A stretch of 64,000 nucleotides of DNA from Mobula hypostoma (lineage: Eukaryota). The DNA lies in the NCBI RefSeq assembly GCF_963921235.1, contig NC_086108.1:40488001-40552000 (forward strand), in the 5' to 3' direction. Numbering within the stretch: position 1 is the stretch's first letter; each line of letters starts with the position of its first letter. The position numbers were made by a program, and so were the translations under genes. Positions 1 through 64,000 of this stretch are shown here, in pieces. Below the pieces are notes generated by a model, which did not search any database, was not told the origin of the DNA, and saw only the letters and a program-made list of their open reading frames with translations.

Positions 1-1
1 G

Positions 2-1500: not shown

Positions 1501-1717
1501 AGGAAGAGGTGCAGTCGACATTTTTGGATCTCCCCCTCCCCCTCCCACTTTCAAATCCCTTACTCACTCTTCCTTCAGTTAGTCCTGACGAAGGGTCTCA
1601 GCCTGAAACGTTGACTGCACCTCTTCCTAGAGATGCTGCCTGGCCTGCTGCGTTCACCAGCAACTTTGATGTGTGTTGCTTGAATTTCCAGCATCTGCAG
1701 AATTCCTGTTGTTTTTT
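1501..1717 (+). mobile_element. Short Penelope-derived insertion with hammerhead motif and inverted 5' stub
   Basis: 13-bp TSD TTCTATTTTAACT (1488-1500, 1718-1730); the first ~20 nt are the reverse complement of ~1610-1629; same tail as the GIY-YIG-linked element at 62543-64000. Confidence 0.85.
1581..1616 (+). ncRNA. Minimal type I hammerhead ribozyme motif
   Basis: AGTC-CTGACGA-AGGGTCTCAGCCT-GAAA-CG-TT-GACT: stem I AGTC/GACT, CUGANGA core, stem II hairpin, GAAA, ACGT palindrome in place of stem III. Other copies have the canonical GTC triplet. Confidence 0.75.
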
Positions 1718-3614
1718 TTCTATTTTAACTGTTTGACAAAGGACTGTGGATTGAGTCCACCACAATGGGCTTCCTAAAAGGTGTGAATACCACATACTTC
1801 TGGTAGTTTGATCTGATGCTGTAGTTTCAAAGGCAGTATCACCTATACATTATAAATATTAATTGTCTTCTATGTTAGCACGGGAAATGCCAAATAAATG
1901 TAACGTAGACTTAACTTACATTCCTAAAGACTGTGGATACCAACCCAGACATGCTGGCTTCAGGAGGAAAGGATGGTGTGATTTTGTATGTAGCTTCAAT
2001 AGGAAGCATTGTCTATGCATTGTCTATAACTTTTAAGTAGCAATTGCCTTTGTGTTTAGCATATAAATATCGAGCCCACGTTGAGCCAACAGACCTTTGT
2101 GCGGAAAGCGTCTCGGTACGTAGATACCTGCTGTACCTTGTTGTGTCGAATAAAGGAGCTGCTTTGTATCTACCAGTGACTGTCTCTCCAATAATTTCAT
2201 TGCGCTACAACAGTGGCAATCTTGCACTTGGGGTACTCCAGTGACTGTATATTAGCTAACAATATGCTAGGGAGAGGAAGCACTTTTAAAACTTTCATGC
2301 AGTTTTAAAACATTTTTTATTTGAAAACCAATCATTTCAACAGCTCCAGTACATTCCACATCATCATGATAAGTTCTGACCATGGGGTAGATTGTGCTAA
2401 TGCATGAAGGGTGCTTGGGGCACAGTAATGTGCCAGTCAATCTTTATCTCATTGTCACTGAAGCAATATGCCAGCATGAATGTGGACTTCAGAAAGGATA
2501 TACAGCAGCTTCAAATGCACAGGGTGAGGACACATCCCTTCTTTGGATGGTGTAGGGGAATCTTTGCAATTGGCTTTGATCCGTTTTATCTCCAGCATAC
2601 GCTCAGAAACAATAACTTGTCCTGGCCATCAGCTGGTATGACTGGTTGGTATCAACCCTGTTCCCCAAACACGTCCTGGCCAGCTCTGCCCCTGAATAGC
2701 CTCATTACCTGAAGCTTCTACTTCCTCCATGGCTGCAAGATTCTACTTCTCCTTTCATTTATGGCACATGTGGTTTTGGCGCATAATTATGCAAATGCAT
2801 TGCATACTGAGCACTAGAAAATTTCTCCCCACTTTGCCAAGCCTGAAGCGGGCACTGGCGGATCATTACATGTTTTAACTCACATGAGTAGAAAATTGTG
2901 AGTGAAAACCAGTGATGCTGGGAGATAAAGAGAAGAAGCAGCTGTCCCATGTTCTGCAGACGTATATATGACTGGTTAACCTTCCCCTTTAATTCCTGGC
3001 ACGATGTAGTGTAAACAAGTCCAGATTCTTTATTCCTTTACACATCCAGCAAAATGTTGGAAGATGTATGACATCTTGCCGAGTAAATGCTTTTGCAGTG
3101 GTCAGGGATGTTACATGAGTAGGTTTTCATATCTATTCTTACAAAGAGCTCTTGAGTATGAGGCAGTAAAACTAAATGGACAGTAAAATGATGCTCTCTT
3201 CAAGTTTAATATAATTACTTTTACATAAAATAAGAGAGAATTTCTCTGGGTGACAAACATGAGCTAGTCATGTGAGTATTGAAGTTCAATCCATAGGTGG
3301 GAGCAGTGGGGAGTGGATGTGATTCATTTTTCACTTTGGTGAATGTCTTGGAGCTGCTCACAATAGGTCAGAATCATAATCGAGTTTATTACACTGATAT
3401 ATGTTGCGAAATCTGTTGTATTGCAACAGCAGTATAGTGCAATACTTAAAAGTACTATAAGTAAGTGTAAGAATTACAAAAACATCCATAAGTTGTGCAA
3501 AAATGGGGCAAAATAGTGAGGTAGAGCTCATGGGTTCATGGACCAATCAGAAACCTGATGGCTGAGAAGAAGCTGTCATAAAATGTTTAGTGTGTGTCTT
3601 CAGGCTTGTTAAAA

Positions 3615-3951
3615 TGTGGTTCATGGCTATTAATTTTACAGAAGTAAAAATGGCTGGAGTCCCTTAGCACTTAGTGAAAGAATGTTTATTAGATGCGTCA
3701 AAAATAAAACTTACAAAAATCAGTGAAGATTAGCGGGAGTAGTTTAAAAATACCAATATTTACAAAAAGATATCTGCACACAATAGTAGCTCTGTACTTA
3801 TTCTTGTCCAGTATGAATTCCTGGCAGCTCTGATCACTCTCGCATACTGAGGACAACGAGCTCCTTTTACAGGCACTAGGACATACTACCTTTAAGTACC
3901 AATAAAGTTAACTTAAGACTACACATAAATTAGAATATGATGCACCCCACA
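3615..3951 (-). repeat. Putative solo LTR of an unrelated family
   Basis: TGTGG...CCACA inverted termini, ~337 bp, AATAAA on the minus strand near 3685; no convincing TSD. Confidence 0.4.
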
Positions 3952-7033: not shown

Positions 7034-7117
7034 AACAACACACGCAAAATACCGGTACTCAGCAGGCCGGGCAGCACCTATGGAAAAGAGTACAGTCGAC
7101 GTTTCGGGCCGAGACCC
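7034..7117 (-). mobile_element. 84-bp Penelope-derived insertion, 5' end at hammerhead stem II
   Basis: TSD TTGAAAATGTTCA (7021-7033) / TTGAAATTGTTCA (7118-7130); minus strand begins GGGTCTCGGCCCGAAACGTCGACTG. Confidence 0.85.
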
Positions 7118-7566
7118 TTGAAATTGTTCATTTATTTTGAATTCCAAGTTCCCTTTCTTTCTCAATAATGACAGTTTTTTGCTTACATGTCATTTGAGTT
7201 GGCTTTCCACTACAAAGATCAGTCAAAAACCTCAAATTTCCAATTCCGCAACTGGTTTGCACAAAGTTGAAGATGGCTTTAATTTCTTGAGACTACCTTT
7301 TCCCAGTTAAGATTCAGAGAAAATTTTGTGAGAATACTTAATAAGATGCATATCTTCATTGCACCATTTTTCTTCTGTTCATTGGGCTTTTCCTACATGG
7401 AATTCTGAACTTAAAATGGCTGAGGCTGCATTAAATTCAGGCATTTGAAGAGGATTGTTCCACTCCTGAAAACAAGCTAGTCATCAGAAAGAAAACCACA
7501 TTTGTTTCGGTTCCAAGGATGGTAATGTGAAGACATATACTTACCCAATAAGTTATAGTAGGGATA

Positions 7567-8681: not shown

Positions 8682-8785
8682 CAACATACACACAATGCTG
8701 GAGGAACTCAGCAGGTCAGGTGGCATGTATGGAAGGAACTGAACAGTCAATGTTTTGGGCAAAGATCCTTCATCAAGTCTCATCA
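8682..8785 (-). mobile_element. 104-bp Penelope-derived insertion with degenerate hammerhead
   Basis: TSD GTGTGTGTTAAC (8670-8681) / GTGTGTTTTAAC (8786-8797); minus strand TTGATGAAGGATCTTTGCCCAAAACATTGACTG. Confidence 0.8.
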
Positions 8786-8817
8786 GTGTGTTTTAACTGC
8801 TTGTTAGTGAACTGCCT

Positions 8818-9233: not shown

Positions 9234-11096
9234 CACTGCCTATAAACATTATTCAACACCCTTGAAAGTTGTCATGTTCTATTGTTTTACAACATTGAAT
9301 CACAGAGGCTTTTTTGGCTTTTTTTGCCTTTTTGACACTGACCAACAGAAAAAGACTCTTTCATGTCAAAGTGAAAACAGATCTTTACAAAGTGATCTAA
9401 ATTAGTTACAAATACAAAACACAATTAATTGCATAAATATTGACCCCTTCAAGTCAGTATTTACTAAATGAACCTTTGGTAGCAATAACAGCCTTGAGTC
9501 TGTGTGGATAGGTCTTTACGCGCTTTGCACATCTGGACACTGCAATTCTTCCTCATTCTTCTTTACAAAACTGCTCAAGCTCTGTTAGATAGCATAGGGA
9601 TCATGCGTGAACAGTTCTTTCAATTAATAAAACATAATAACTTCTGGGGGGGGGGTGTTGAGGAATGTTTGTTATAGGCACTGTACTACCTTGAGATTCA
9701 TTTTTGTGAAGGCATATACATGAAAACAAAAAAATACAATGGGTCTCTACCCACTTTGCACATCTGGACACTGAAATTCTTCCTCATTCTTCTTTACAAA
9801 ACTGCTCAAGCTCTGTCAGATTGCATGGGGATCATGCATGAACAGTCCTTTTCAAGTCCAGCCACAAATTCTCAGTTGGATTACAGTCTGGACTTGGCCA
9901 CTCCAGGACATTAACTTAGTTGTTCTTAAGCCATTCTGATGTAGCTTTGTCTTTATGATGAGGGTCAATGTCTTGCTGGAAAACTAACCTTCTCCCAGGT
10001 CATAGTTCCCTTGCAGACTGCATTAGTTTTTCTTCAAGGATTTCCCTGTATTTTGCTGCTTTCAATTTACCCTCTCCTTTTACACATCTTCCAAGGCCTG
10101 CTGCAGTGAAACATCCCCACAGCATGATGCGGCCACCACCATGCTTCACGGTCGGGATGGAGTGCTTTTGATGATATGTGGTGTTGGGCTTACACCAAAT
10201 GTAGTGTTTAGTCTGATGGCCAAAAAACTCGATTTTGGTTTCATCAGACCGTAGAGCCTTCTTCCAGCTGACTTCAGAGTCTCCCACATGCCTTCTGGCA
10301 AACTCTAGTTGAGATTTCACGTGTGTTTTTTTGCAACAGTGGCTTTCTCTTTGCCACCCTCCCATAGAGCTGTGACTGTGGAAGCACCCGGGTAACAAGT
10401 TGTTGCATGCACTGTCTCTCCCATCTCTGCCACTGAAGCTTGTAACACCTCCAGAGATGTCATAGCTCTCTTAGTGGCTTCACTCACTAGTCCACTTCCT
10501 GCACGGTCACTCAGTTTTTGAGGATGGCCTGCTCTAGGTAGATTTACAGCTATGCCATATTCTTTCCATTTCTTGATGATTGATTTAACTATACTCCAAG
10601 GGATAGTCAGTGACTTGGAAATTTTCTTGTATCCATCCAACACGTGTTTTTCAATAACATTTTCACAGAGTTGCTTGGAATGTTCTTTGAATTCATGGTA
10701 TAGCTTTTTCCAGGATACTGACTCACCAGTAGTTGGACCTTCCAGATACAGGAGTATTTTTACTACAATCAATTGAAACATCATGACTGCACATGGTGAT
10801 CTCTATTTAACTAATTATGTGACTTCTAAAACCAATTGGCTGCACTAGTGATGATTTGGTGTGTCATTTTAAAGAGAGTGAATATTTATGCAATCAATTA
10901 TTTTGTGATTTATATTTGAAATTAATTTAGATCACTTTGTAGAGATCTGCTATCGCTTTGACACAAAAAAGTCTTTTTTCTGTTGATCAGTATCAAAAAA
11001 AGCCAAATTAAATCCACTGTAATTCAATGTTGTAAAACAATAAAACATAATAACTTCTGGGAGTTGGGGGTTGAGGAATCTTTGTTATAGGCACTG
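9234..11096 (-). mobile_element. Tc1-family DNA transposon with long (~200 bp) TIRs, internally rearranged
   Basis: TA|CACTGCCTATAA...TTATAGGCACTG|TA ends; inverted repeats ~9234-9440 and ~10880-11096; inserted into a LINE 3' tail. Confidence 0.92.
9745..10700 (-). pseudogene. Tc1 transposase, frameshifted
   Basis: ORF 10317-10784 (GYKKISKSLTIPWSIVKSIIKKWKEYG...LPRAGHPQKLS, paired-like HTH) and ORF 10000-10398 (WKKALRSDETKIEFFG...PTVKHGGGRIMLWGCF). Confidence 0.92.
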
Positions 11097-16164: not shown

Positions 16165-16331
16165 AATTATAAACATGAGAGATTCTCCAGATGTCAGAAA
16201 TCTTGACCAACACACACCAAAATGCTGGAGGACTCTGCAGGTCGGGGTTTGGCTTGAAACATCATCTGTTTATTTTCCTCCATAGTGCAGCCTGACCTGT
16301 TGAGTTTCTCCAGTATTTTGTGTGTGTGCTC
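16165..16331. mobile_element. Inverted (two-arm) Penelope-derived insertion
   Basis: TSD AAGAAATTGGCA (16153-16164) / AAGAATTTGGCA (16332-16343); left arm is the minus-sense tail, right arm is plus-sense and starts at a degenerate hammerhead stem II. Confidence 0.75.
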
Positions 16332-18807
16332 AAGAATTTGGCACTGTTGTCCATGTACAGGAAGACTTTAACATGAGTACCTCTTCTGCATGCGATTTCT
16401 ATCCTCCTTTGGTGATGGATATCCACAGTCCAGGGCAGGAGCTCTCATGTTTGCTATGCTTGCTTTCTAAACAGTAGCTGAGATTTGTAAGGCCAAATTC
16501 AATTGTAAATAAACTTCCAACTAACAGTTTGTTTAGTTTCTGGTCATAAATGGGAGTCAGTCTTCAATTCTTAAAATGTAAATGGAAAGTAATAATCAGC
16601 TTGAAGTTAAAAGAGTACTCTCTATAGAACAGTTTTAAAAATAACTCTTTATTTTGCAGACACTCTGTCTGTGAGAAAGCAAATGCTATTTGCTGCACCT
16701 GCTTTGCTGCTCAAGAATGCAGTAGAAGACAATGGATTGTTAATTTGTGTTGTATCAAACAGATCAGCTGACTCTTAAATTGCTTAGTTCAAGGAAGCCT
16801 GCAGAACAGATGGATCATTTAGCATGTCAAATAACTGATGTGTTTATAGTGGAAAGGTTTTTATCTGCTCTAGGAAGTTAACCTTGCAGCATTCACAGCA
16901 TTGATTGAGAACTATGTCTCCAAACAATGTTTTTAGACCATTTGAGTGGAAGAGATATCTGAGGCAATATTATATGCATGTGAAGTTGCCTAAGTGGGAT
17001 AAAAGATATATAAATGTAGAGGGCAGTTTGGACATATTAAGAATGGGGAAGGAACATCAAGAAACATGGAAGAAACATAGGGTGAACTCAAAATCTGTTC
17101 CTCCAGCATTGATTTCTGCAACAGATGACTTGTCTAGATCATGGTATGTCTTTTAATTTATAAGAAATATACCCATGTTTTGGAAATCTTTTTTTGTACT
17201 TAAGAAGTACTTTGTGCTTTATGTTTTAAAATGTTTTGAGCTTTGAGTTTAGGAAACAATTTTTAAGATAGAAATCCTCTGAGTTTTAAATGTGTTTTAG
17301 AAGTGTTCTTTGGATTTAAGCATGTATTACTTAAGATAAATGAACTGTGTTTTAATCTATTTTGTTTGGGAGAAGGGACCCACCACTCAAATGCTGTGTA
17401 TTGGCAGCTAAACTCACCATGCAGAATAACCAGGGAAGTAGACTAACCTTTGAAGATTGGGTACTTACACTATAATCTCCCTTTGGTGAGAGTACTCATG
17501 GCTATTTATGTCTGATAGGGCTTAATGTTTTTGTTTGAGTTTAGAACTTTGTATCAGCAAACCCAAAAGCATCACACTTCAGCATCAACAGATCTTGCAA
17601 AAGGTTCCATTCAGCATGCAAGCCAAACAGAGAAGAGGGAGCAGACTCTTGATCACTCCAGCTTTGTCAGGAGGTTTTCCATTTCTGATCTGGGCCTGCT
17701 ACTGACAACTGTGTGGAGCAGCTGTCAACTGAATAGATTTGGAAAGGAGTGCTTCATTAGGTAAAGTAAAGCAATTGCAGAAAGTGGTTTCCCCAGGGCA
17801 GGCAGGTATTCAAAGCATTGAATAAGACCCAGTGCAATCCGAGCATGTGAATGGTAGAGATGGCAATGCACCTGAGAGGACACCAGCCTGTAAATGCCAC
17901 AAAGATGTTCTTGTAATAGTACATGTTCCAGTGAAAAACAATTGACCTGAAACACAGTCTGTTCCCCACCCTGCACTGCCATCTCACCTGTGTTTCCAAC
18001 ATTTCCTGTTTTTTTTGGTTTTTTGATTATCATATTCTGCCACATTTTTCTCTTTTGCATTTTGAGTCATGGTTTATTTCATCAAATTATGTATAGTAAG
18101 GATGTACTCCAGTCAATTCAGGAACCATCCATAAACATTTAAACTAAACTTTAGAATATGACTAGGTGATACCTAATAGCATATAATGTCACTTGAGGTT
18201 GTGTATGACAGCATTGTTTTCAGGTTTATTATACAAGAGTAGCCTTCTAGACACCTGTAAAGGACCCAAAGGTGGAATCCTAGTGGCAGCTCAAGTCACA
18301 GCTTTTATAGAGAGTGAGAGAGCCAGGAAGTACAAGGAAATCTCAACATTGACAGGAAGTGCTGATACAGCCTTATTGAGCAAGATGTTGGTGAGAAGAT
18401 GGAGTCACAGGTAGACTGGGTGCTGAAGGAGGAGTCGGGCATGGGGACCTTCACTATTCAGGGCATCAAGTATAGAAGTTGGGATGTCACGTTGCAGCTG
18501 TACAAAATATTGGTTAGGCCACATAGGGAGCATTGTGCTCTGTTTTCATCACCCTACCATAGAAAGATATCACTTAAGTTGGAAAGAGTGCAGAAAACTT
18601 TACAAGATTAAAGGTGAGGGGTGAAATTTTTGATAGGAGTCTGAAGGGCAACTTTTTCCACAGAATATGGTCAGTGCCCTGAATGGTGAAGGTCAGCAGG
18701 CCAAACGTCTTCTTCACCACCCAGAGTTGCCAAAGGAAGTGATTAAAGCAGCTACAATAACATTTAAACTGTACTTGCACGGGTGCATTCATAGGAAAGG
18801 TTTAGTG

Positions 18808-36719: not shown

Positions 36720-37300
36720 ACATACCAATTCCTGCTTGAGTACATTTTGCATAAGCTCCTCTTTGCCCACTAACACAACATTTCCACAGTAGATGTTATT
36801 TCATTGGCTCTTCACTCAACGCTGGACTGTCAGTACTGCAAAGATGCATGCATCAGGATGCTATTTATCAACTGAAGCTCAGCATTCAACACTATCATCC
36901 CCACAAAACTAATCAATAAGATTCAAGACCTTGGCCTCAATACTTCCTTGTGCAATTGGATCTTCTATTTCTTCACTTGCAGCCACCAATCAGTTTGGAT
37001 TGGCAACAATATTTCCTCCACAATCTCAGTCAGAACAGACTATGTGCTTAGCCCCCTGTCACCTATCACATCCCAGCTTCTTAGTTCTTACCCCTCCTCC
37101 ACCCACCTACATCCCCCCTCACCTAGCTTCACCTGTTAACTGTCAGCTTGTACTCCTTCCCCTCCCCTCATCTTCATATTCTACTATCTTCCCCCTTCCT
37201 TTCCAGTCCTGATGAAGATTCTCGGCCCAAAATATTGACTGTTTATCCCTCTCCACTGATGTTGCCTGACCTGCTGAGTTCCTCCAGTATTTTGTGTGTA
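36720..37300 (+). mobile_element. Rex1 RT fragment fused to a Penelope pyrimidine-rich tail with hammerhead motif
   Basis: [17 protein letters not shown]...LGL...LCNWI motif at ~36855-36965; CAGTCCTGATGAAGATTCTCGGCCCAAAATATTGACTG at ~37204-37241. Confidence 0.65.
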
Positions 37301-37959
37301 TGGCTCACTATATGGAAAAGAACTTGACACATCCACAGTTCCCGACTGCTGCGCTTTCCCTTGGGAGGAAAGGGAAACGAGATTTCCAAGTCACCCTGGG
37401 CATCTGTTACAAGTCTTTGGCCAGAAGCCGAACATTATCAATGACAGAGATCTCATATTAAGTCTTCTGGTTAATATCTCAGCCGGGCTCACTGTGTAAT
37501 ACAAAGAAATCTAGAAGAAAGGAGTGGAAACAAAGAATGTAATCGCATATCTCATCATTACAACGTTACACTTTGCAGGCAACAATGGATTCTTGGATTC
37601 ACAATCCCATCTCCCATTGTATGTGATCTATTGGTGGTCCTAGGTCAACCTGTATGGGGGAGTGGGTTCTTGTAGTTGATCCATGGCAATGCCAGGCACC
37701 TTGTAATTCTTGACTCACTAACTGAAGGTAACTGGTATAGATGCTAATAGAATTCCAGTGAAATACTTTAGAAGCACAGTGCACAAATGGATCTTAAGCA
37801 GAGTAAAATTGTTTAACACTAACCTCCGTGGTGTACTTCGTCAGTTAGCGGATGACTTCATTATCAGACTGAGGTAATTACATACCTCTATCATTTTCTA
37901 TAAGGAGCTTCTATTTTTAATAATAAAATCTGGAGGCATTTTCATCTGTGATAAAGCAA

Positions 37960-42935: not shown

Positions 42936-43062
42936 CAAACACGAGGAAATCTGCAGATGCTGGAACTTCAAGCAACACACATAGAAGTTGCTGGTGAATG
43001 CAGCAGGCCAGGCAGCATCTCTAGGAAGAAGTACAGTCGACGTTTCGGGCCGAGACCCTTCG
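42936..43062 (-). mobile_element. 127-bp Penelope-derived insertion, 5' end inside the hammerhead core
   Basis: Perfect TSD TGTGAACTG (42927-42935, 43063-43071); minus strand begins CGAAGGGTCTCGGCCCGAAACGTCGACTG. Confidence 0.85.
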
Positions 43063-43399
43063 TGTGAACTGGCCTGTTTCCAACAATTTAACCTTTCCAT
43101 TCGATGGGATTAGCAGCCATAAGGGATCCTCTGCTATGGCTTATTGTGAGTCTTGGGCTGCTAACCTTCCAGCACCTGTTTACACCTGTCTGCAATGTTT
43201 TCGAGCAGGACTGGATGATCAGGTGGGAGACATGGAGACATAAGAAAATGGTCTCATATCAGAAGGCCACCGGTAGGAGAGTAGGATTATAAAGAGCTGC
43301 CAGTGATGGGAATGTGGAAAGGAAGTTTGCCTCTGCTGAAGCTCATCAATTCCATGCTGAGCTTGAAGAATTAATAATGTTACTTCCAGCCTACGAGAA

Positions 43400-44190
43400 G
43401 TACAAGTTCGGGTATTCAAAGTTGCTTCTCTACTGCAGGAGTGACACCACCTCATATTCCATCTGGGTAGCCTCCAATCTGATGGCATGAACCGGTAATT
43501 TCTCCCTCCTCCCTCTTCTCTGTTCTTCAATTTCCTGTTCTGATCCCACTTTCACCCCTTCTCTCCTCCCCTACCCGTCACCTCCCTCTGATTTCCCCTT
43601 GTTGTAGCGTGGATGTAATCACCGGAGAGACAGAGTCACTGGTAGATACAAAGCAGATTCTTTATTCAACACAACAAGGTACAGCAGGCATCTTAGCGGA
43701 TGGAGGCGCTTTCCGCAGAAAGGTCTGTTAGCTCAATGTGGGCTCGATATTTATATGCTAAACACAACGGCAATCGCTACTTAAAAAGTTATAGACAATG
43801 CTTCCTATTGAAGCTGCATACAAAATATCACACCATCCTTTCCTTCCGACACCAACATGTCTGGGTTGGTATCCACAGCCTTTAGGAATGCAAATTAAGT
43901 ATACAATACATTTATATGGCATTTCCCATGCTAACATAGAAGACAATTAATATTTATAATGTATAGATAATACTGTCTTCAAAACTACAGCATCAGGTCA
44001 AACTACGGCACCAGAAGCATCTGGTATTCACACCTTTTTAGGAAGCGCATTGATGTGGACTTAATCCACAGTACTTTGTCAAATAGAAGTCTGGTGGCCA
44101 AAGTCATTTAAGTGTAAACAAATCATCTACCCAAAATAACTCACTCTAACACTCCTCCTCCTTCCCTTTGTCCCATGCTCATTCTCCTAT
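43400..44190 (+). mobile_element. Penelope-like element fragment (GIY-YIG C-terminus + pyrimidine tail), interrupted by a solo LTR
   Basis: HLIFHLGSLQSDGMN at ~43448-43492, homologous to the GIY-YIG end near 63730-63790. Confidence 0.7.
43600..44151 (-). repeat. Solo LTR type A
   Basis: TGTT...AACA termini; reverse complement aligns to 1424-2212 minus the insertion; 5-bp flanks CCCCT / CTCCT. Confidence 0.9.
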
Positions 44191-45021
44191 CAAGGTTCTT
44201 AGGAATCCATTGTTCAGAGCTGCACTGTAGACTTAATCTTCAATGCATATTTCAATCTGAAGAATGATCACTGAAGTCAATATTTGCTTTAGGTCCTAAC
44301 CCCAAAAACGCCCTGAAAGTCCCTCCTCTTGGCCCTCTTGGACAAAATAAGTTTGTACCAGGAAAAGGCCAACAACCTTAAGGAAGATCTACTCAAATAG
44401 GGCAGCAGAAATGCCCTGCTTTGGAACCCTTCCATATATGTGTATCTACATCTACCCTATCATCCCTAATAGCTACTTACAAAATGCTAAGCAAAAAGGT
44501 TGTTCCAGAAACTTGAACAGTCTTTAGAAATGCAGCTTTGTTCGTGCTCCTGTTGGCTCTTTCCCTGCTGGCTGGTTGCTATTCCGTGTCTTCACCCCTT
44601 CATTTTCTGGTAGACAAAACTCCTTCTTTCTAGGAGTACCAGCAAAGTAAATGTATCAGGCTCTCAGGCCCTCTTATCGATGTACACAAAGGGGGTTGGG
44701 GTGGTCTCTATTTGAATGACCGCAAGGACCTCTCTCCAGTGGCATCCCCTTCCGAACTGTCCAGCTGATCACTGGCCCGACTGCTGAAAGCACCCAGCTC
44801 ATTTGTACTCACTCTCCATTCAGGCTGGGGGTGACTGCCTTCAGATGCCGTGTGCATGCCATTGAAGTTATAGAACCTGATATCTCTGCTTTAACTTAAA
44901 TCCCTCCCCATCTATTTTCCTCAATATTTTTTCTTTTCTATTCTATGCTATTCAACTAATCATTGACTTTCAGCAACCAGCCTTAATTACAGAGTACCAT
45001 TTTCAATACACTTTAGCATGC

Positions 45022-48000
45022 TATTCACGGGTTTCTGGCGTGCCCTCAGTGTCTTCTGCCTTTGAGTCTGCTGTGCGTGTGTTCCCATCAACTATGGTCA
45101 GGCCTGGTGTGGCCTTCTGTTCATCTCTTAGGTTCTCTGTAACTACACAGTTACTGGGTACACTTGATCTCCCACTCTGCCTGTGGGGCAAACAAGAAAG
45201 TTTAACCTGAGTCTAGCGTTTCCACAGACTGCCTCACTGAGTCTGTACACAGTCATTTGTTAAAAGTACCATCTGTGGTCCTAACCATCTGGGAGTAAAC
45301 CCTGTGCTTTCAGGCTGCACCCTCACCATGACCTGGTCACTCAGCTGTGGGAGGACTATCTCCTTTCCTTCTGGCTCTCTCTGATTAGCAGTATGCTGCT
45401 GTTGTTTTGCTCGGTCCTTCAATGCTTTAAGTCAGTTACAAATGTCTTTCCCTTGCGGGGTCATTCTATCCCTGTAAGCCCCAGGCTCACTGCAACCCAT
45501 AACTACCCTATAAGGGAGTTGCATTGCTTGCCCCATCAATAATTCGTAGGGGCTGAAACCCAATATGCCGTTTGTGGTTGCTCACAATTTCATCAGGATT
45601 CCTGGTAATACATCAACCCATGTCTTTCCCATCTCAGCTACAACTTTGGCTAAGATGTTCTTGATTGTGCAGTTCATTCTTTCTACCATTCCTGAACTCT
45701 GAGGGTGGTGGGGTATGTGGAACCGTTGTCGAATTCCTCACAGTCGGCACATTTTCTTCATCACTTTCCCTGTGAAATGTGCTCCCTGATCCGAGTCCAC
45801 CTGGACTGGGGTTCCCCACCTTGGGAGAAACTCCTGAACTAGGATCCATGCAGCAGTGCTGGCAGTGCAGTCCCTTGTTGGGAAAGCCTCTACCCACCGG
45901 GTGAAGTGATCCACAATTCCTAGACTGTAGCTTTTCCCCTTGCTTTTTGGCAGAGGCTCCATGAAGTCTATCTGGAAGTTTCCCAGGGTCCCCTCGGCAG
46001 TGGCTGATCTGCCAGCTGTAGCTTTATGCCCTGACCAGGGTTATACTGGGCACAAATGATACAATGTGGCAGAATTTCTCAACATCCCCGCCCATTCCTG
46101 GCCACCACCAGTCCTGCCGGAGGGTCATGATCAAGCTCTGTCTTCCCTGATGTCTCACCCCATGATATAACTTCAGTAGTATCTGCCTAATACATGGTGG
46201 GGCCACCACAACCCCTTCCTCCCCGTGTGTCCAGCACCCATCTGGTCCCTCCTTTGCTCCTTTTCTCCTTCATTTCTCATTCTCTTCTGCCTCTACCTCT
46301 TCATATAATTTTAAACTGGCTTCTGTCATTTCCTCCTGCACACTTGCAATTTCAATTGCCTCTTGTTCCTCCGCTGCCTTCTTCACACTGGCATCTGCCC
46401 ACTCATTTCCTTTCTGCTCCTCACTCTCCCCTTTCTGGTGAGCTTTTGCTTTAGTTACTGCCACCTCTGTTGTCAGACTCACTGCTTCCAGCAGTTGTTG
46501 TTTTAGGTGCCCGTGCTGAATACCTGCTCCTGATAAGGTTTCAGATCCTCATCGTGCCCACACTATCAGATAATCATGTACCACCCCGAAGGCGTACCAG
46601 CTGTCTGTATATATATTTGCCCGTCTGCCTTTACTGCAACTCAGTGTTTCTATCAGGGCCACAGTTCCGCTTCCCAGTCTGAACAACCGCTTGGCAGTGC
46701 TCCTGAAGCTAATTCTTCACCTGTTTCCTTCACCATGCCCCACTTAGTCCGTGGCTTCCCATCTACGTACCTCCAAGACCCACCTATAAAAATTTCCTCT
46801 GCTTCCCTTTCCGGAAGTGTTTCCTTCACACCAATATATTCTTCCTGCTCTATTTCCATTTGGCACTCGTGTGTATCCCTCTCTGTTAGGGTGCTGCTTG
46901 CGGGGTTCATCCCAGTGTCCCTAACTATCGTTACTGACTTGTCTTTCCAGATGAGAACCACCTCCCAAGCTGCCCTTCTGCTGTTGGTGACTGCTCTCAG
47001 CCTCCCTGTGGTCAGGAGCTCTACAATGGTATAGGGTGTGTGTGGAATGAGCTCTCCCACCATAACAACTGGTTTGCTTACTCCCACTGCCCATACAACA
47101 CAGTCTAAAACTGCTACACAGTGGGGAAGTCCTGCTGCAATGGGAGTCTGTTTCGTTGAATAATATGCCACTGGTCTTTTTTTGTCCCCATGGTCCTGCA
47201 CCACTCGTGCATTGTAACATACTCCCTTATTGCTGCAGTATAGGCGAAAGGGGCCACATCCGGTAATCCTAGAGATCAGGGCTTTCTTAATATCTGGAAA
47301 AGCCTTTTCCTCATCTGGCTTCTCTCCTTTAATCAAGGCCTGTATCGGGGCCACTAGTGCTGAGAACCCTGGTATGAAATTACAGCAGTAATTAAATAGA
47401 CCCTTTACCTTCCTCACTCCCCTTACCTTTGCTGAGCGGGTCGTGAAGCTGATTGCTGAACGTCTGTCATCTGTCATGTCCTTCCTCCCCTGGGAAATGG
47501 TGTAGCCTATGAGCCCTGTGTGGACAGATTTTAAACCCATCATCTTGCAGTATCTCTAGAACACTGGCTATCACCTCTAAATGACCAGCTTCATCTTCTG
47601 AAGCAATTGGTAGATCATCTACATATTGTAAGATGGTCGACCAGTAGGGCATTAGAGTGAGCTTTTCCAAAGTCTGCAGTATGACCTGGCTGGGCTATTG
47701 CGGAATCCCTGGGGGAGTCTGGCCCACGTATGCTGCTGCCCATCCAGGATGAAGGCAAATCGGTCTTGGGACTCAGGTACTAAGGGGAGCCCCCAGAATC
47801 TATTAGCGATATCCAGGACTGATAAAACATTATGTTCTGGAGACAAGCCATTCAGTATTGTTGCAGGGCTCGCCACAGTGGGATGCAATCTCGGCGTGGT
47901 CTTATGAAGAGCAGTATAGTCTATTGTTGAGTCTATTGTTCTCCTTTCTTTTAAGTGGGTTTATCTTTATTCCACCACAATCTTGCTTGTGTCTCACCCA

Positions 48001-48430
48001 CACTGCTGGGAACAGCTGACGAAGTAACCCATAGACACTACCCTGACTCTACTGTCTCATGGTCTGGGCAGTTTTTGCTATGCTGGCTAGGTTGTGTACT
48101 TTATTGCTTGTATGTGTTTGCTGCCCCTGACTTACCCATATCATTTCACCCTTTCCTAAATCTATGATGGCCCCTGCTTCTCTTAGGATACGTATTCCAA
48201 GGATAGCACCCTCTTTATTTGGACAGACCCAGCAATACACTGGAAGTTGCACTCTGCCGATTTCAAGTATCTGCAACTCACTTCTTTCTGCTTTCACTGC
48301 TTCCCCACCCCGCGCACACACGTAATATAAATAGCATGCCTGGTTGTTAGCAAGGGAAGGTCAATTATCAATACTGATGTCCCCTGTGCCAATTAACATA
48401 TCGCACTGCTAGTCCCCTAACAATGCTTTG
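45022..48430 (-). pseudogene. pol: pro-pol: protease, RT, tether RNase H, RNase H, integrase; many frameshifts
   Basis: MLIGTG (degenerate DTG, ~48382-48399); SVLDIANRFW...WARLPQGFRNSP; QYVDDL; PFRLY...RPVAYYS (tether); NIYTDSWYAFGVVH and KAH...GNEWAD (RH); HGVRHQG...WWWPGM...C; IVDHFTRWVEAFP...VDSDQGAHFTG (IN). Confidence 0.93.
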
Positions 48431-48479
48431 TGTACATCTGTGGGTCACCAGCGCTGGCACTGGGGGCCGCCACTAGATA

Positions 48480-49412
48480 TTTTGCTGACCTAGAAGCTGC
48501 CTTCACCAGCCCTATAATCTGATCAGCAGGCAGATTGAACAAACTGGGCGCTGATGGGGTGAGAGATTACGTGTCTGCCATAACTTCTGCCTGTTCCCCC
48601 CCCCCCCAACTCTATTTTGGACACTGCCTCCAACCATGTCCCGACAGGGCACAGCTGTAGCTTATCGACTTCTTTACTGTTTATGCCTGGTCTGACAGTC
48701 CTTTGCTAAGTGCCCTAGTTGCTGACACACAAAGCAAAGCCTCTGTGATGCTATAGCAGCTGCATCCACTAGAGCCATGTTACAATTTCTTTTGCATTTT
48801 CTTTGGTCTATCTCACTGGCCTGTGAAACAATTGCAGAGTAGGTCAATCCTATCACTATCCCTAAATCTAAAACTTCCTATAGGGCTGAGTTCAGGCTTC
48901 CTTCATCATTTTCAGGGAAACTAGGTTGTCTCTCCCTGAATTATCTAATCTTGAATACTCCTCGTACACTGGATATTTATGTTCTGGAAGTCCTTGGCTG
49001 TCTCATCAGCTCCTTGAACTATTATCGTTCCCCAGTTATTCTCAGCTACCCCAGTAGCTGCCTCACTTCCCCTTTAAAAGAGTGGTATCTTTCTTCATTG
49101 CTGGCACTCCCAGTAGTTGCCCTGTACCATCCCGCACTCTCTGGGCCATACTGCTCCAAATATTCCTCGGGCACTTCGCTTTTTACCAATGTATGTATAT
49201 TTTTAGGGTGCATCTGGTGAATTTCAACCATTTCCTCGAGCTTGCATCAGAATTCTGAATTCCCACATGTGACTTAAGTGAGGGCAACTCTGATAATGCC
49301 CTGTTTCTCCCTGGGGGTGAAAAGCTTATGAATGGTCGTAATCAAGGTCAAGGGCAGGCTCGGATCATTGGGGTTCTCGATCTGATGTTTGCCTGACCTC
49401 AAAAGCTGCCAT
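48480..49412 (-). pseudogene. gag: Short gag with a single CCHC zinc knuckle
   Basis: CFVCQQLGHLAKDC in ORF 48674-48856; ORF 49046-49231 upstream; candidate ATG (GGATGG) at 49412. Confidence 0.75.
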
Positions 49413-49904
49413 CCTGACAGATATATCTGGGCAGAACCTCTCCCTGAAATATCTCCACACTACACAAAATATAAATGACGGCTACCAGTTGAGCAGCGCA
49501 AACTTAAAACCGCAGAGTATATGCTCCGCAATCGGCCACATCTGTGCACCAGAGCTCATGATGCCTGTTGTATTCCTTTGCATCACACTCGCAAAACGTG
49601 TAAGCTAAAATGCAGCTCCCAGAACGAGTATGCACGCCCCCACTGGTATCCCGCACCTTCAATACCCTTCGCAACTGGTGGCCCTGTCTCACCAAATTAA
49701 CACACAAGGTTTCGTCTCTTAAATAAACACACATGCACGTGCACACACTGCTTTTATATCTATCAATTCAGCTCTCCATGTTTGCTATACCTCGCATTCC
49801 CGTGTGCCACCGGCCCAAACAGATCCAAGTGTAAATGCTAATTTAAAAAACACTCACCTACTTAGACTGCTAAGATCACTGGCCACACAATGGGTCACAA
49901 GAAG

Positions 49905-49925
49905 GTATCCCATTCCTGAACGAAA
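49905..49925 (-). promoter_or_regulatory. Degenerate primer-binding site, most like tRNA-Leu
   Basis: Directly after the LTR CA end: TTTCGTTCAGGAATGGGATAC, versus the tRNA-Leu(CAG) complement TGGTGTCAGGAGTGGGAT. Confidence 0.55.
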
Positions 49926-50467
49926 TGTTGTTTTGTGAATGAAGTCACCAGAGAAAAGTACTAGTAGTTATGAAGCAGCCTCTTTATTCGACAAAACAGG
50001 ATACAGAAGGTATCATATTGAGACCCTTTGTGGAAAAGGTCTGCTTGGCCCAGCTCTACACAACATTTTATGTCCCAAAAATCAAAGAAAAATTCAGGAC
50101 AATTCAAACAAATCCATATTTACAATGCTTTCTTTCAATTACACACCATAATTCCGTATTTATAATGCTTTCTTTGACCTACACACCACAATTCCATATT
50201 TACAATACTTCCCTTGAACACACCACTTTCACACCTCCCTCGTTCGCACCCATGCTACAGACATCCAAATACACACAAATAATGAACTTAAATCAGCAGT
50301 GTGTGATCTTCTGCTTAACTGTTGTCTTCCAAAGAGCTTGGTTCAAGGTTCTTAGGAACCCATTGCTCAGAGTTGCATTTTAGAGTTAATCTTCAATGCA
50401 CATTCAGATCTGAAGGTTGGACACGGAAGTCAATAGCCAATGTCCTGACCCCCAAAACAGCCTAACA
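49926..50467 (-). repeat. LTR type B (5' LTR of copy 2)
   Basis: TGTT...AACA; AATAAA on the minus strand at ~49983-49988; R/U5 resembles type A, U3 does not. Confidence 0.88.
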
Positions 50468-52580
50468 CATGGTTGTGCCCTCGACGCCTCAGTGAGAGAG
50501 AAGCAATGGAGTCAATCATTGGCTCGTTACCCATCTCCAGGCTACCAGACCTCCAGACCATACACTCTGCTCTAAACCTCATCAAACTCCCTTGGAGTCA
50601 GCAAAGCACAAGATCACTCAATCAGCCTCAAAATACACCATCACAGGTTCCCATTGCACATAGTTTAGTAGTAGAATCTTATCTGAAAGAAGCAGTGAAA
50701 GAAGGAAAAGAAATATTCTGGTTTCTTCCCCCGTCCTTTCAAGCACTGTTGAAAGGTCCTGACCTGAAATGTTAACTGCTAATTCCCCCCAAAGACACTG
50801 CCTGACCTGTTGAGTTCCTCCAGCATTTTGTCTGTTGGTCTGTTTTGAATTCCTCCGGATGTTCTGCAACTCTTGATGAGCATTAGTTTCAGGTTAAAAT
50901 AGGGTTACGTGCTCTGCTAACACTGGACGCATTTCCAAGCAATTGAAGACTGGCTGCATGCAGTCCCCCTGACAGAAGATCGTTTTTATGGGGGGATCAC
51001 AAGAATATTGCTGGTATTGCTTTTGTTTTTGCAGGGCAGATATGATTCCAATCAAGCCATCAGAGTTATGATACAGCACAACATCCAGAGCATGCTAACC
51101 AAAGTGAATGTGTGCAGTGCTGCTATCTTTCTGCACATGCTGCAACCATTAGTGCAATTGGCTTCAAAATGCTTTGAGCACTCATTGGAATACTGATCTG
51201 ATTTCAAGAGCCTATTGCTTCAAATGTAACAGTGCCCTAACAAAATGCCACACACTTTAAAATGCTATGAAAGGCAATGCGAGTAAACTCTGTCACCAAT
51301 TATTTCTGTGCTTTACACTTTAAAATGTCATCCATGTTCAGCCCTCCAGTGAGAAATGGGGAATACTGGTTTGAAAGGCACTAGTTTGTGTACAGAGCAT
51401 CAAAAAATACACTGACATTTAAGTTTTTTTTATCTTGTTTATTTGTTTCAAGTAACAACATTACTTGGGCTGAAGTAGTGCATCCATATCTCAGAACCCT
51501 TAACTCTGCAGAGATTTACTAGAAACACAGCCCATCAGGCTTATTGCGTAGGTTCTGTGTGGCCCAGAGTTTCCCAGCTTAACCTTGGTATTTCTGAAGC
51601 CCAGTGTAATCCTGTTCAATGCTCACTGTCAATCCCACCCAACATAATAAAGAAAGTTTTATATTTTATTGAGCCAAAAAAGGGAGTAAGAATTATAAAA
51701 GGAAACATTATTTGTCTGAATTGGTATATGGTCCAAAATATTACAAGAGATGTCATTCATGGTGCCTCACAGTTCTCCCTTGTCTTGTACACTGAAACCG
51801 CTGGCCAGATGCAGCTGTTATTTGGTGACATAGTGAGCCCTCTCTCTCTCTTTCCTGACACAGACTGTGTGCATCTTTGCCTATTCACTAGGCACAGGTG
51901 ATGGGTACAGCACAGCAATGAGAAGTACGGTATGTGGATAATTTCCCTTTGAATGTTTAGAATGAAGCAACAAGTCAGAGTACATTTTCCTTTGCTGCGA
52001 TATATTGCAACGATCATAACTAAAGTGTTCCTTTATCCATTCATTCCCATGAAAAGATATATTCTATGGGGACAATCATAACTAAAATGCTCCCTTTATT
52101 CATTCATTCCTCTGAAAAGATGAAAGTTTTCCATAGGTCACTACCTTCAGTGCCATGGGCTAACCCATTAATGTGCTTAATTGCATGCTTTATCAAAAAC
52201 ACTTTGCACTCAATTAAAACTGAATTACACAGTGACTGGTTACTTCACTATCTAGGGGAACATTGGATGCTGATAATATTGAATGTGTCCCATTGTATCT
52301 CCTTGGTGATCGTCTGAATTCTCCCACACTCAGATGAAATAATGTTATTCCTGATGTTTGAGATATGTACAGTATTTTAAAAGATTAGGTGAATATATTG
52401 AATTGTGCCTACTCTTCCTTCTTTGGCAATTGTTGTTGTCATTTTGTCTCTCTGTATGGGCTGCAGATTTATACAAGGATTGCCTACTGTTCTTTATCAA
52501 TGTGAAACTTGGATGATTTTCTAACCTCACCTGAAGAGTTCGGGGTGCGTGCCTTTGAAAAATGTTCTGCATTGAGTATA

Positions 52581-57934: not shown

Positions 57935-60900
57935 TCTATAGATATAGAACAGTACAGCACAGTACAGGCCCTTCGGCCCACAGTGTTGTGCCGACCCTCA
58001 AACCCTGCTTCCCATATAACCCCCCCATCTTAAATTCCTCCATATACCTGTCTAGTAGTCTCTTAAATTTCACTAGTGTATCTGCCTCCACCACTGACCC
58101 AGGCAGTGCATTCCATGCACCAACCACTCTGAGTGAAAAACCTTCCTCTAATATCCCCCTTGAACTTCCCACCCCTTACCTTAAAGCCATGTCCTCTTGT
58201 ATTGAGCAGTGGTGCCCTGGGGAAGAGGCACTGGCTGTCCACTCTACCTATTCCTCTTAATATCTTGTATACCTCTATCATGTCTCCTCTTATCCTCCTT
58301 CTCTCCAAAAAGTAAAGCCCTTGCTCCCTTAATCTCTAATCAGAATCCATACTCTCTAAACCAGGCAGCATCCTGGTAAATCTCCTCTGTACCCTTTCCA
58401 TTGCTTCCACATCCTTCCTATAGTGAGGCGACCAGAACTGGACACAGTACTCCAAGTATGGCCTAACCAGAGTTTTATAGAGCTGCATCATTACCTCATG
58501 ACTCTTAAGCTCTATCCCTCAACTTATGAAAGCTAACACCTCATAAGCTTTCTTAACTACCCTATCTACCTGTAAGGCAACTTTCAGGGATCTGTAGACA
58601 TGTACCCCCAGATCCCTCTGCTCCTCCACACTATCAAGTATCCTGCCAATTACTTTGGACTCTGCCTTGGAATTTGTCCTTCCAAAGTGTACCACCTTCT
58701 CCAGGTTGAACTCCATCTGCCACTTCTCAGCCCACTTCTGCATCCTATCAATGTCTCTCTGCAATCTTTGACAATCCTCTACACTATCTACAACACCACC
58801 AACCTTTGTGTCATCTGCAAACTTGCCAACCCACCCTTCTACCCCCACATCCAGGTCATTAATAAAAATCATGAAAAGTAGAGGTCCCAGAACCGATCCT
58901 GGTGGGACACCACTAGTCACAACCCTCCAATCCGAATATACTCCCTCCACCACGACCCTCTGCCTTCTGCAGGCAAGCCAATTCTGAATCCACCTGGCCA
59001 AACTTCCCTGGATCCCATGCCTTCTGACTTTCTGAATAAGCCTACCATGTGGAACCTTGTCAAATGCCTTACTAAAATCCATGTAGATCACATCCACTAC
59101 ACTACCCTCATCTATATGCCTGGTCACCTCCTCAAAGAACTCTATCAGGCTTGTTAGACATGATCTACCTTTCACAAAGCCATGCTGACTGTCCCTGATC
59201 AGACCATGATTCTCTAAATGCCCATAGATCCTATCTCTAAGAATCTTTTCCAACAGCTTTCCCACCACAGACGTAAGGCTCACTGGTCTATAATTACCTG
59301 GACTATCTCTACTACCTTTTTTGAACAAGGGGACAACATTCGCCTCCCTCCAATCCTCCGGTACCATTCCCATGGACAACGAGTACATAAAGATCCTAGC
59401 CAGAGACTCAGCAATCTCTTCTCTCACCTCGTGGAGCAGCCTGGGGAATATTCCCTCAGGCCCCAGGGACTTATCCATCCTAATGTATTTTAACAACTCC
59501 AACACCTCCTCTCCCTTAATATCAAAATGCTCCAGAAGATCAGCCTCGCTCATATTGTCCTCACCGTCATCAAGTTCCCTCTCATTGGTAAATACTGAAG
59601 AGAAGTATTCACTGAGGACCTCGCTCACTTCCACAACCTCCAGACACATCTTCCCATCTTTATCTCTAATTGGTCCTACCTTCACTCCTGTCATCCTTTT
59701 GTTCTTCACATAATTGAAGAATGCGTTGGGGTCTCCTTTACCCTACTCGCCAAGGCCTTCTCATGCCCCCTTCTTGCTCCCCTCAGCCCCTTTCTTGCTA
59801 CCCTATATTCCTCAATAGACCTATCTGATCCTTGCTTCCTAAACCTCATGTATGCTGCCTTCTTCCACCTGACTAGATTTTCCACCTCACTTGTCACCCA
59901 TGGTTCCTTCACCCTATCATTCTTTATCTTCCTCACCGGGACAAATTTATCCCTAACATCCTGCAAGACATCCCTTAACATCCCTAAACATCGACCACAT
60001 GTCCTTAGTACATTTCCCTGCAAAAACATCATCCCAATTCATACCTGCAAGTTCTAGCCTTATAGCCTCGTAATTTGCCGTTCCCCAATTAAAAATTTTC
60101 CTGTCCTCTCTGATTCTATCCTTTTCCATGATAATCCTAAAGGCCAGGGAACAGTGGTCACTGTCCCCCAGATGCTCACCATTGAGAGATCTGTGACCTG
60201 ACCCGGTTCGTTACCTAATACTAGATCTAGTATGGCATTCCCCCTGGTCGGCCTGTCCACATACTGTGACAGGAATCCGTCCTGGACATACTTAACAAAC
60301 TCTGCCCCATCTAAACCCTTGGAACTAATCAAGTGCCAATCAATATTAGGGAAGTTAAAGTCACTCATGATAACAACCCTGTTATTTTTGCACCTTTCCA
60401 AAATCTGCCTCCCAATCTGCTCCTCGGTATCTCTGCTGCTACCAGGGGGCCGATAGAATACTCCCAATAGAGTAACTGCTCCCTTTCTGTTCCTGACTTC
60501 CACCCATACTGAATCAAAAGAGGATCCTGCTACATTACCCACCCTTTCTGTAGCTGTAATAGTATCCCTGACCAGTAATGCCACCCCTCCTCCCTTCCCC
60601 CCCCCCACCATCCCTTTTAAAGCACTGAAATCCAGGAATATTGAGAATCCATTCCTGCCCTGGTGCCAGCCAAGTCTCTGTAATGGCCACTACATCATAA
60701 TTCCATGTATGTATCCAAGCTCTCAGTTCACCACCTTTGTTCCTGATGCTTCTTGCATTGAGGTACACACACTTCAGCCCTTCTACCTTACTGTCTTTAC
60801 ACCCTTTATTCTGCTTCTCTTTCCTCAAAGCCTCTCTATATGTTAGATCTGGTTTTACTCCATGCACTTCTTCCACTGCTCTATCGCTCCGGGTCCCATC

Positions 60901-62339: not shown

Positions 62340-62540
62340 GTAGCACTGGCATCCACAGAGATGAAGTGTTTTGAGAGGCTGGTGATGAAACCCATCAACT
62401 CCTGCCTGAGAAGCCAATTGGATCTGCTCCATTTTGCCTACAGCACAACAGGTCCTCAGCAGCTGCCATCTCAGTCGCTACTCACTTCAGTCTGGAACGC
62501 CTGGACAGCCAAGGTACATAACATCAGGGTGCTCTTTATC
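62340..62540 (+). mobile_element. Rex1 RT fragment
   Basis: MKCFERLVMKPINSCLRSQLDLLHFAY...IRVLFI. Confidence 0.75.
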
Positions 62541-62542
62541 AA

Positions 62543-64000
62543 TAAACATGAGAAAATCCGCAGATGATAGAAATCCACAGCAACGCACACAAAATGCTGG
62601 AGGAACTCAGCAAGCCTAGCAACATCTATGGAAAAGAGTGAACAGTTGACATTTTGGGCCGAGACCCTTCATCAAGACTGCAAAACATAGAAACATCGAA
62701 ACATAGAAAACCTACAGCACAATGCAGGCCCTTCGGCCCACAAAGCTGTGCCGAACATATCCTTACCTTAGTTCTAGGTACTTAGAACTACCTAGGCTTA
62801 CCCATAGCCCTCTATTTTTCTAAGCTCCATGTATCCATCCAGGAGTATCTTAAAAGACCCTGTTGTTCCGCCTCCACCACTGCCACCGGCAGTCTATTCC
62901 ACACACTCACCACTCTCTGCATAAAAAAACTTACCCCTGACATCTCCTCTGTACCTACTTCCAAGCACCTTAAAACTATGCCCTCTCGTGCTAGCCATTT
63001 CAGCCCTGGGAAAAAGCATCTGACTATCCACACAATCAATGCCTCTCATTATCTTCTACACCACTATCAGGTCACCTCTCATCCTCCGTCGCTCCAAGGA
63101 GAAAAGGCCGAGTTCACTCAACCTATTCTCATAAGGCATGCTCCCCAATCCAGGCAACATCCTTGTAAATCTCCTCTGCACGCTTTCTATGGTTTCCACA
63201 TCCTTCCTGTAGTGAGGCGACCAGAACTGAGCACAGTACTCCAAGTGGGGTCAGACCAGGGTCCTCTATAGCTGCAACATTACCTCTCGGCTCTTAAACT
63301 CAATCCCACGATTAATGAAAGCCAATGCACTGTATGCCTTCTTAACCATAGAGTCAACCTGTGTAGCAGCTTTGAGTGTCCTATGGACTCGGACCCCAAG
63401 ATCCCTCTGATCCTCCACACTGCCAAGAAAGAAGAAAGAGGAGCATTCAGAGTAAGAAGGGGAGGGTTGAAAGAAGTACAAGGTGGAAGGTGATAGGTGA
63501 AACTGGGAGAGGGGAAGAGGGTGAAATAAAGAGCTGGGAAGTTGATTGGTGAAAGAGATAAAGGGTTGGAGAAGGGGAAATCTGATAGGAGAGGATAAAG
63601 ACCATGGAAGGAGGAGGAGAACCAAAGAAGGTGATGGGGAGGTAGGAAGAGATAAGGAGAGAGAGGGAACAGGAATAGGGAGTGGTAAATTTGGGGATGA
63701 TTACTGGAAGTTTGAGAAATCAATGTTCATGCCATCAAGAGGATCCTCAGACGGAATATAAGGTGTTGCTCCTCCAACCTGAGCGTGGCTTCATCACGGC
63801 AGTAGAGGAGGCCATTGACTGACATGTTGAAAAGGGAATGGGAAGTAGAATTTAAATGGGTGACTACTGGGAGAACCCGCTCATTCTGGTGGACGGAGAG
63901 TCGGTGCTCAGCTAAGTGGCTGCCCAATCTACATTAGGTGGCACTTGTTCTGCTTGCAAGGGTAAGTACCAGAAGGGAGATCAGTGGGGAGGGATCAGTG
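62543..64000 (-). mobile_element. Penelope-like element 3' part (GIY-YIG end, pyrimidine tract, hammerhead tail), split by a CR1
   Basis: ORF 63727-63927 HLAEHRLSV...LPVVTHLNSTSHS...LRLEEQHLIFRL; tail with CAGTCTTGATGAAGGGTCTCGGCCCAAAATGTCAACTG at ~62643-62680. Confidence 0.8.
62684..63418 (-). mobile_element. 5'-truncated CR1 inserted into the Penelope element
   Basis: EDQRDLGV...[15 protein letters not shown]...RRRMRGDLI; (TTTCTATG)n tail; ACTGC at both junctions. Confidence 0.88.

Follow-up and report, generated by a model that had tools for sequence, protein, structure and literature searches.

Decayed minimal hammerhead motifs in dispersed repeats of Mobula hypostoma that very probably derive from a Neptune-clade Penelope-like element

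We analysed a stretch of 64,000 nucleotides of Mobula hypostoma DNA (contig NC_086108.1, positions 40,488,001 to 40,552,000), hereafter called the window, in which a short repeat with hammerhead ribozyme motifs occurs eight times. These repeats are very probably 5'-truncated insertions of the 3' pseudo-long terminal repeat (pseudo-LTR) of an endonuclease-containing, Penelope-like retrotransposon of the Neptune clade, whose master copies would carry a minimal type I hammerhead. A preliminary description of this DNA had proposed a minimal, dimer-type, type I hammerhead in the ends of Penelope-like elements, which is borne out by an endonuclease remnant in the window, by the match to the published consensus and by compensatory changes in the stems.

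Minimal hammerheads in the pseudo-LTRs of metazoan Penelope-like elements were described by Cervera and De la Pena in 2014 (PMC4209133), and the kind has been known since then from fish, coelacanth, frog and reptiles. The portions of Fig. S3 and Table S1 of that paper that were examined contain no cartilaginous fish. The present work extends the record to a very-high-copy Neptune family of cartilaginous fish. We found no paper devoted to this elasmobranch Neptune family in the literature, a search which did not cover Repbase and Dfam, and the supplements of a 2026 preprint (10.64898/2026.07.22.740005) may list the family.

The hammerhead motif and its eight copies

In the family motif, CUGAYGA and one additional A are followed by a stem II of 4 bp, GAAA, the palindrome ACGU and GUC; stem I has 5 bp. 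All the parts named in the preliminary description (stem I, core, stem II, ACGT palindrome and GUC cleavage triplet) are present in the family consensus, which fits the published minimal type I hammerhead. The motifs described in PMC4209133 are alike in sequence (type I, CUGAYGA with an extra base, a G opening stem II, GAAA, ACGU, GUC and a short stem I) and also in setting, being located 3' of the endonuclease and mostly found as dispersed single motifs from truncated copies. The copies in the window, named here by the flagged position of their motif, and the pieces belonging to them are:

1580..1617, plus strand: minimal hammerhead of copy 1581, the sole intact core (CUGACGA 1585-1591, GAAA 1605-1608, ACGU 1608-1611; predicted cut 1612/1613 after GUU)
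1524..1717, plus strand: copy 1581, a pseudo-LTR copy that lacks its 5' part and has the long 3' end (tail), in the long terminal repeat (LTR) of an element that we take to be like an endogenous retrovirus (ERV)
1499..1523, minus strand: inverted 25-nt piece across the cut site (-7 to +18), on the 5' side of copy 1581
1488..1500, plus strand: left target-site duplication of copy 1581, 13/13 identical to the right copy 1718-1730
7034..7119, minus strand: copy 7093, truncated at stem II (no CUGAYGA), short 3' end; 12/13 direct repeat 7130-7118 / 7033-7021
8682..8781, minus strand: copy 8743, decayed (C3U, G12A), short 3' end; 11/12 direct repeat 8797-8786 / 8681-8670
16245..16338, plus strand: copy 16243, truncated and decayed, starting in stem II; partner of the inverted piece 16169..16246
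16169..16246, minus strand: inverted partner of copy 16243, head to head with it, 3' part and tail without the hammerhead
37056..37305 (start approximate), plus strand: copy 37204, older, with about 150 nt of pyrimidine-rich untranslated region (UTR) and the short 3' end; motif 37204-37241, G12A, stem II broken
42936..43063, minus strand: copy 43034, with the long 3' end and a 5' truncation that falls within the CUGAYGA box; 9/9 direct repeat 43071-43063 / 42935-42927
50713..50838, plus strand: copy 50745, the most decayed; motif 50741-50778 (A6U, stem I 2/5)
62541..62680, minus strand: copy 62643, long 3' end; motif 62680-62643 (C3U, G12A, palindrome broken)

The repeat was detected with nhmmer at all eight flagged positions (E-values 5.6e-40 to 3.5e-23; best E-value on the reversed window 0.43), using a profile made from the eight window copies themselves, so these E-values are too favourable. 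A motif scan, which had been suggested as a check, was less generous: the full minimal hammerhead descriptor has a single match in the window, at 1585 (+), and none in 100 Markov-1 controls of 64 kb, and the exact pattern CTGANGA..GAAA is found at 1585-1608 only. The Rfam scan of the window returned no hammerhead family and one chance sRNA match with an E-value of 0.094. Rfam hammerhead models expect a stem III.

Of the earlier statement that at least seven copies fit the consensus, what stands is that all eight sites belong to one repeat; none of them is an exact fit, and the 11-base core is intact in copy 1581 alone, where it is accompanied by a GUU triplet, G10.1-U11.1 and a loop change. 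Ten of the 11 core bases are kept in copy 37204 (G12A; stem II with 2/4 pairs) and in copy 50745 (A6U; stem I with 2/5 pairs), nine in copies 62643 (C3U and G12A; palindrome broken), 8743 (C3U and G12A) and 43034, seven in 16243 and six in 7093. Three copies lost core bases because they are 5'-truncated through or before the core, and the other four by core substitutions. The apparent 5' stem letters of copies 43034 and 7093 are target-site duplication or flank and not ribozyme sequence, so these copies are 5'-truncated, and copy 16243 begins at the junction with its own inverted partner. Since seven of the eight copies are truncated or without core bases, the density of hammerheads in the window counts relics.

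G12A occurs in three copies; G12 is the general base of the hammerhead (PMC6155905). The extra base between A9 and 10.1 is an A in 7/8 copies, and at the pair that opens stem II, G10.1-C11.1, the column majorities are G (7/8) and C (5/8). The palindrome at 15.1-16.1, which stands without a stem III, reads ACGT in 3/8 copies and ATAT in one, and is CpG-decayed in the others.

The carrier element and the marks of insertion

There are two places in the window where remnants of the carrier element were detected:

63704..63994, minus strand: broken end of an open reading frame (ORF), which retains part of a linker zinc finger (PGTYPC..NKC-like) and, of the endonuclease, the C-terminal half; it is frameshifted and has lost the GIY-YIG motif
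63428..63703, minus strand: pyrimidine-rich 3' UTR, 276 nt; its end can be aligned to the bases that immediately precede the hammerhead in copy 37204
62682..63427, minus strand: 3' fragment of a long interspersed nuclear element (LINE), 746 bp, between UTR and hammerhead; 73% identity to 58038-58638, which adjoins an RVT_1 ORF
43424..43600, plus strand: second C-terminal remnant of the endonuclease (43424-43492) with a pyrimidine-rich 3' UTR; tblastn E-value 1e-4, cut off by an LTR element

Copy 62643 had been described as physically linked to the end of a GIY-YIG ORF. The endonuclease remnant is there, since tblastn with the protein P0001 matches 63994-63704 on the minus strand with an E-value of 4e-21, but the 746-bp LINE fragment, presumably CR1-like, lies between the two and the GIY-YIG motif is deleted: residues 243-292 of P0001, which include this catalytic motif, are missing from the remnant and the frame is broken. 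Because the end of the UTR aligns with the pre-hammerhead sequence of copy 37204, the link is real but interrupted. We could not connect the 43424 remnant with copy 50745 through the intervening LTR element.

The best named protein match of the fragment 63730-63933 is a Mobula hypostoma protein, with 69% identity over 61 residues. Searching P0001 among longer proteins gave 81 matches, most with RVT_1 and several with GIY-YIG. The C-terminal endonuclease half in the window keeps both His of the CCHH, while the GIY-YIG/CxxC part is seen in relatives only. Linker zinc finger and endonuclease CxxC are found together in 57 of 67 relatives, and the window retains the first two Cys of the finger. The extra zinc finger in the linker between reverse transcriptase and endonuclease marks Neptune and Nematis alike and is described as absent from Poseidon (PMC8557442). 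Besides these relatives, the host gene models of P0028, P0042 and P0123 in the database end in the same endonuclease fragment, which is probably annotation read-through into Penelope remnants.

Target duplications of 9-13 bp were identified at five of the seven copies tested (13/13, 12/13, 11/12, 11/12 and 9/9). Each direct repeat was equalled in no more than 0.65% of 2,000 randomly drawn window pairs, and the boundaries were set by eye. One of the 11/12 repeats brackets the inverted pair at 16243 (16153 and 16332). Copies 37204 and 50745 gave no target duplication, and neither did the LINE insert. For copy 1581 the paralogous LTR represents the empty site; it has one copy of the duplicated sequence and is 9 nt shorter than a simple duplication predicts.

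The 3' ends form two classes about 35 nt apart. The short end lies at about +68 from the predicted cut in copies 8743 and 37204, and within a few bases of it in 7093 and 16243, as judged by their duplications. The long end lies at +102-105 in copies 1581, 43034 and 62643 and in the inverted piece at 16169. The positions of the 5' ends vary from -20 to beyond -83, counted from the cut site, and no copy starts at the cut site itself. As all eight copies cross it, the template RNA was probably uncut or re-ligated. The published signature of Penelope-like insertions comprises truncation, adjacent inverted pieces, an optional 30-40-nt tail and a variable target duplication, and the window copies show the same features, with 5' truncation, two inverted pieces, the optional tail and variable target duplications.

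A comparable case is the Poseidon element PAc of Anolis carolinensis (Frangieh et al. 2024, PMC11167929), which is described with a hammerhead followed by two start sites of reverse transcription (an optional tail) and with AT-rich targets. Uncut RNA serves as the template there as well. PAc belongs to another clade, the linker zinc finger being a feature of Neptune and Nematis and not of Poseidon. Its cleavage was seen only with protein. The PAc ORF starts inside the ribozyme, whereas here the matching ATG is ACG in most of the read depth.

Three faint profile matches, which may be older subfamilies, were excluded from every count: 42868-42810 (-) with an E-value of 7e-4, 36479-36535 (+) with 0.012 and 17942-18003 (+) with 0.8. 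Another faint match at about 36700 may also be an older subfamily of the same repeat.

Family size, variation and related loci

Four public sequencing runs, X1 and X12 from the organism of the window and X9 and X16 from two other organisms, were aligned to 1500-1740 at 80% identity. The numbers of contigs placed were 52,388 (from one DNA run), 5,995, 15,368 and 13,218. Contig counts are not copy numbers, and summed depth was rejected as a measure of copy number; the 5,995 contigs belong to X12, which is RNA only by guess, and were not counted as expression. Together with the eight copies in 64 kb, the contig counts indicate a very large family. The preliminary description had deduced a very high genomic copy number of self-cleaving motifs, of which the abundance of the repeat is supported. 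With 7/8 window copies truncated or core-defective, the high number is one of motif relics and should not be read as a genome rich in working ribozymes.

Loose 3' ends pile up at 1714 in all four runs (690, 98, 225 and 211 contigs). Their flanks are unrelated, a sign of the long end. Among the loose ends 5' of 1522 there is a common consensus (agreement 0.72-0.88), so the family extends upstream of this position. At sites of decay in copy 1581, the family consensus is recovered from the reads, with G at 1600 in 67-90% and C at 1612, position 17 of the motif, in 50-92%. Among the four runs (one row not shown), core variants stay below 4% at every position shown except the CpG-prone G12 (2.5-8.9%).

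Position 11.1 (window 1604) separates the organisms. C accounts for 29% and 19% of the depth in the organism of the window and for 72-74% in the two others, and U for about 71-81% as against 26-28%. Given this U majority, the G10.1-U11.1 form is dominant in the organism of the window, and it is a lineage-specific subfamily. The alignment published in PMC4209133 includes G-U at this pair too.

The metagenome scan gave 358 stretches encoding relatives, of which 80 were kept for analysis. In 42 of the 80 loci there is an endonuclease end plus at least 300 nt downstream, and a strict minimal hammerhead was found about 100 nt past the ORF on the sense strand in 11 of these 42 and on the antisense strand in one. 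A relaxed probe over the 80 loci gave 40 matches, 27 sense and 13 inverted. DNA pattern scans of viral contigs and of metagenome contigs gave no matches, and the 100 pattern matches from a protein scan of viral contigs included no relatives.

The commonest motif among the related loci is identical to the one that the supplement of PMC4209133 lists for Acropora digitifera under the label Neptune. Its stem I is GCU/AGC, compared with CAGUC/GACUG (5 bp) here, and stem II and its loop differ as well. The related elements share the core and have different but still complementary stems: from the ray to the Acropora-type families both stems have changed, while the core, the base added after A9 and the palindrome have stayed the same. 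Six window motifs and six related ones (12 natural motifs) align without gaps. Changes on both sides occur in 7/9 stem pairs, and the covariation is 0.47 versus 0.29 when shuffled and at most 0.14 when slid. The 3' ends of the Acropora-type relatives lie at about +60-70 and +115-120, that is, a short end plus an optional tail; a tail motif was detected in 4/18 by pattern and in five by eye.

In some of the related loci (L005, L020, L030, L037, L038, L053, L054 and L061) the sense hammerhead after the ORF is accompanied by an inverted one, usually upstream. Furthermore, a group of Acropora-type motifs (L030, L037, L054, L057, L060, L070, L073, L078 and others) has CCGACGA in place of CUGACGA. 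The U of CUGACGA is kept in 26/40 relaxed matches, and the CCGACGA group is possibly a subfamily with the core change U4C.

Possible use of the ribozyme and alternative explanations

Several observations weigh against the assignment of the window repeats to a Neptune-clade pseudo-LTR with a minimal hammerhead. Pfam alone does not recognise the window fragment, and P0001 scores 20.9 bits against a GIY-YIG cutoff of 22.6. There is no full-length element in the window, and neither the reverse transcriptase of the family nor its 5' repeat was seen there; a reverse transcriptase is found in relatives of the endonuclease. The covariation rests on about three independent families and not on twelve. 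Core and downstream variation do not differ significantly at non-CpG positions (0/9 versus 17/95, Fisher p 0.19), and a conservation test of the whole motif was not significant either (p 0.14), a result to be expected for neutrally decaying copies. Finally, the predicted energy of the double hammerhead is -19.9 kcal/mol, compared with -25.4 for two monomers and -33.7 for a mispaired duplex; these energies leave out tertiary contacts.

The monomer is predicted to fold into an inactive rod in which the core GAYG pairs with CGUY. In the Acropora-type motif the double hammerhead is predicted to be disfavoured likewise, which makes this a property of the class. It has been published for this class that, without a stem III, the active site needs two motifs paired via stem I and ACGU, and the reports describe no monomer activity and low dimer activity. 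The predicted folding preference is consistent with these reports and with the protein-assisted cleavage in the anole. Action as dimers through the palindrome, as suggested previously, agrees with the dimer-type motif, but the copies are dispersed single units without a tandem partner and the double hammerhead is not the preferred fold.

The following steps of RNA cleavage and transposition are what we infer from the observed anatomy, homology, duplications, ends and covariation. A tandem master locus would be transcribed and the protein of the element would bind the RNA. The GIY-YIG endonuclease would make staggered cuts in AT-rich DNA, and reverse transcription would start at an internal point of the RNA, roughly 68 or 102-105 nt from the cut site on its 3' side, cross that site and usually stop early, sometimes with an inversion. 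Cleavage would serve to process or circularise the master transcripts; it would probably be slow and protein-assisted, given the inactive rod predicted for the free RNA. The ribozyme would act, if at all, on tandem master transcripts. Dispersed solo copies would decay neutrally, mostly by CpG loss, and nearly all of them are presumably dead, since seven are without core bases and the eighth is without a partner in cis.

Just before the core there is a pyrimidine tract ending in AG (1564-1582 and 37190-37206), which resembles a 3' splice site in the ray subfamilies. A 3' splice site of this kind, which remodels stem I, has been reported for Penelope of Drosophila virilis. No spliced joint into 1583 is among the joints shown from the four runs (15 more are not shown), and Acropora-type relatives lack this AG, so the idea of a splice site does not apply clade-wide. 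There is a slim chance that the family records how the ribozyme is used, namely in 3' ends at fixed distances, which the Acropora-type family shows too despite its different sequence, in a hairpin that is inactive until protein binds and in a remodelling of stem I by the splice site. A large family with young subfamilies is good material for asking whether insertions begin at the cut site or derive from circles; if the masters do come from cut and re-ligated circles, a circular versus a linear template could be tested by counting 5' ends at the cut site.

It is just as improbable that the motif no longer cleaves in this lineage and survives as a structure that binds protein or sets the spacing for the start of reverse transcription, or only as part of the repeat. 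This would agree with the inactive predicted fold and with the way in which every window copy runs through the cut site. In addition, in vitro insertion was unaffected by ribozyme mutants of the anole Poseidon element, for which no RNA reads ending at the cut site are reported (PMC11167929). Against a loss of cleavage stand a core, extra base and palindrome that stayed constant from ray to Acropora-type elements while both stems changed, and the low core variation in the four runs, where among the rows shown G12 alone reached 4%.

Non-LTR retrozymes of animals were reportedly described by Cervera and De la Pena in 2020. The short units of the window could be a self-standing, non-autonomous element of this kind, or one like a short interspersed nuclear element, that arose from the pseudo-LTR, has its own masters and circular RNA and is mobilised in trans by Neptune. 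We regard this as quite unlikely. Coding sequence is indeed absent from 7/8 copies, and a recent preprint (Li, Clavereau and Pollet 2026, 10.64898/2026.07.22.740005) derives animal retrozymes from pseudo-LTRs and reports them in the one chondrichthyan genome that it includes. In both systems the repeats are short, non-coding and related to pseudo-LTRs, and they carry a type I hammerhead. The retrozymes are described as tandem units each with a complete motif, whereas the copies here are dispersed, have scattered 5' ends and in one case reach the endonuclease. Moreover, the consensus continues 5' of 1522, and no tandem array of units with complete hammerheads was found in the 64 kb of the window. 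A chance resemblance of some repeat to a hammerhead, for which the empty Rfam result might speak, is already largely refuted and has next to no probability, given the clean controls of the descriptor, the occurrence of this motif class at the corresponding place of related elements and the compensatory changes.

The window as a whole is repeat-rich vertebrate DNA with 41.6% GC and contains LINE fragments, a broken LTR element and transposase remnants. A frameshifted transposase remnant, which we take to be Tc1-like, is located at 10000-10802 (-), and Pfam gave no match for the piece tested. The broken LTR element, at 43600-50460 (-) and 1-2221 (+), has protease-, reverse transcriptase-, RNase H- and integrase-like pieces (Pfam RVT_1, RT_RNaseH and rve) with motifs that are presumably retrovirus-like. 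One LTR houses copy 1581, and the other LTR element sits in a Penelope UTR. A second partial copy of the broken LTR element is 74-85% identical.

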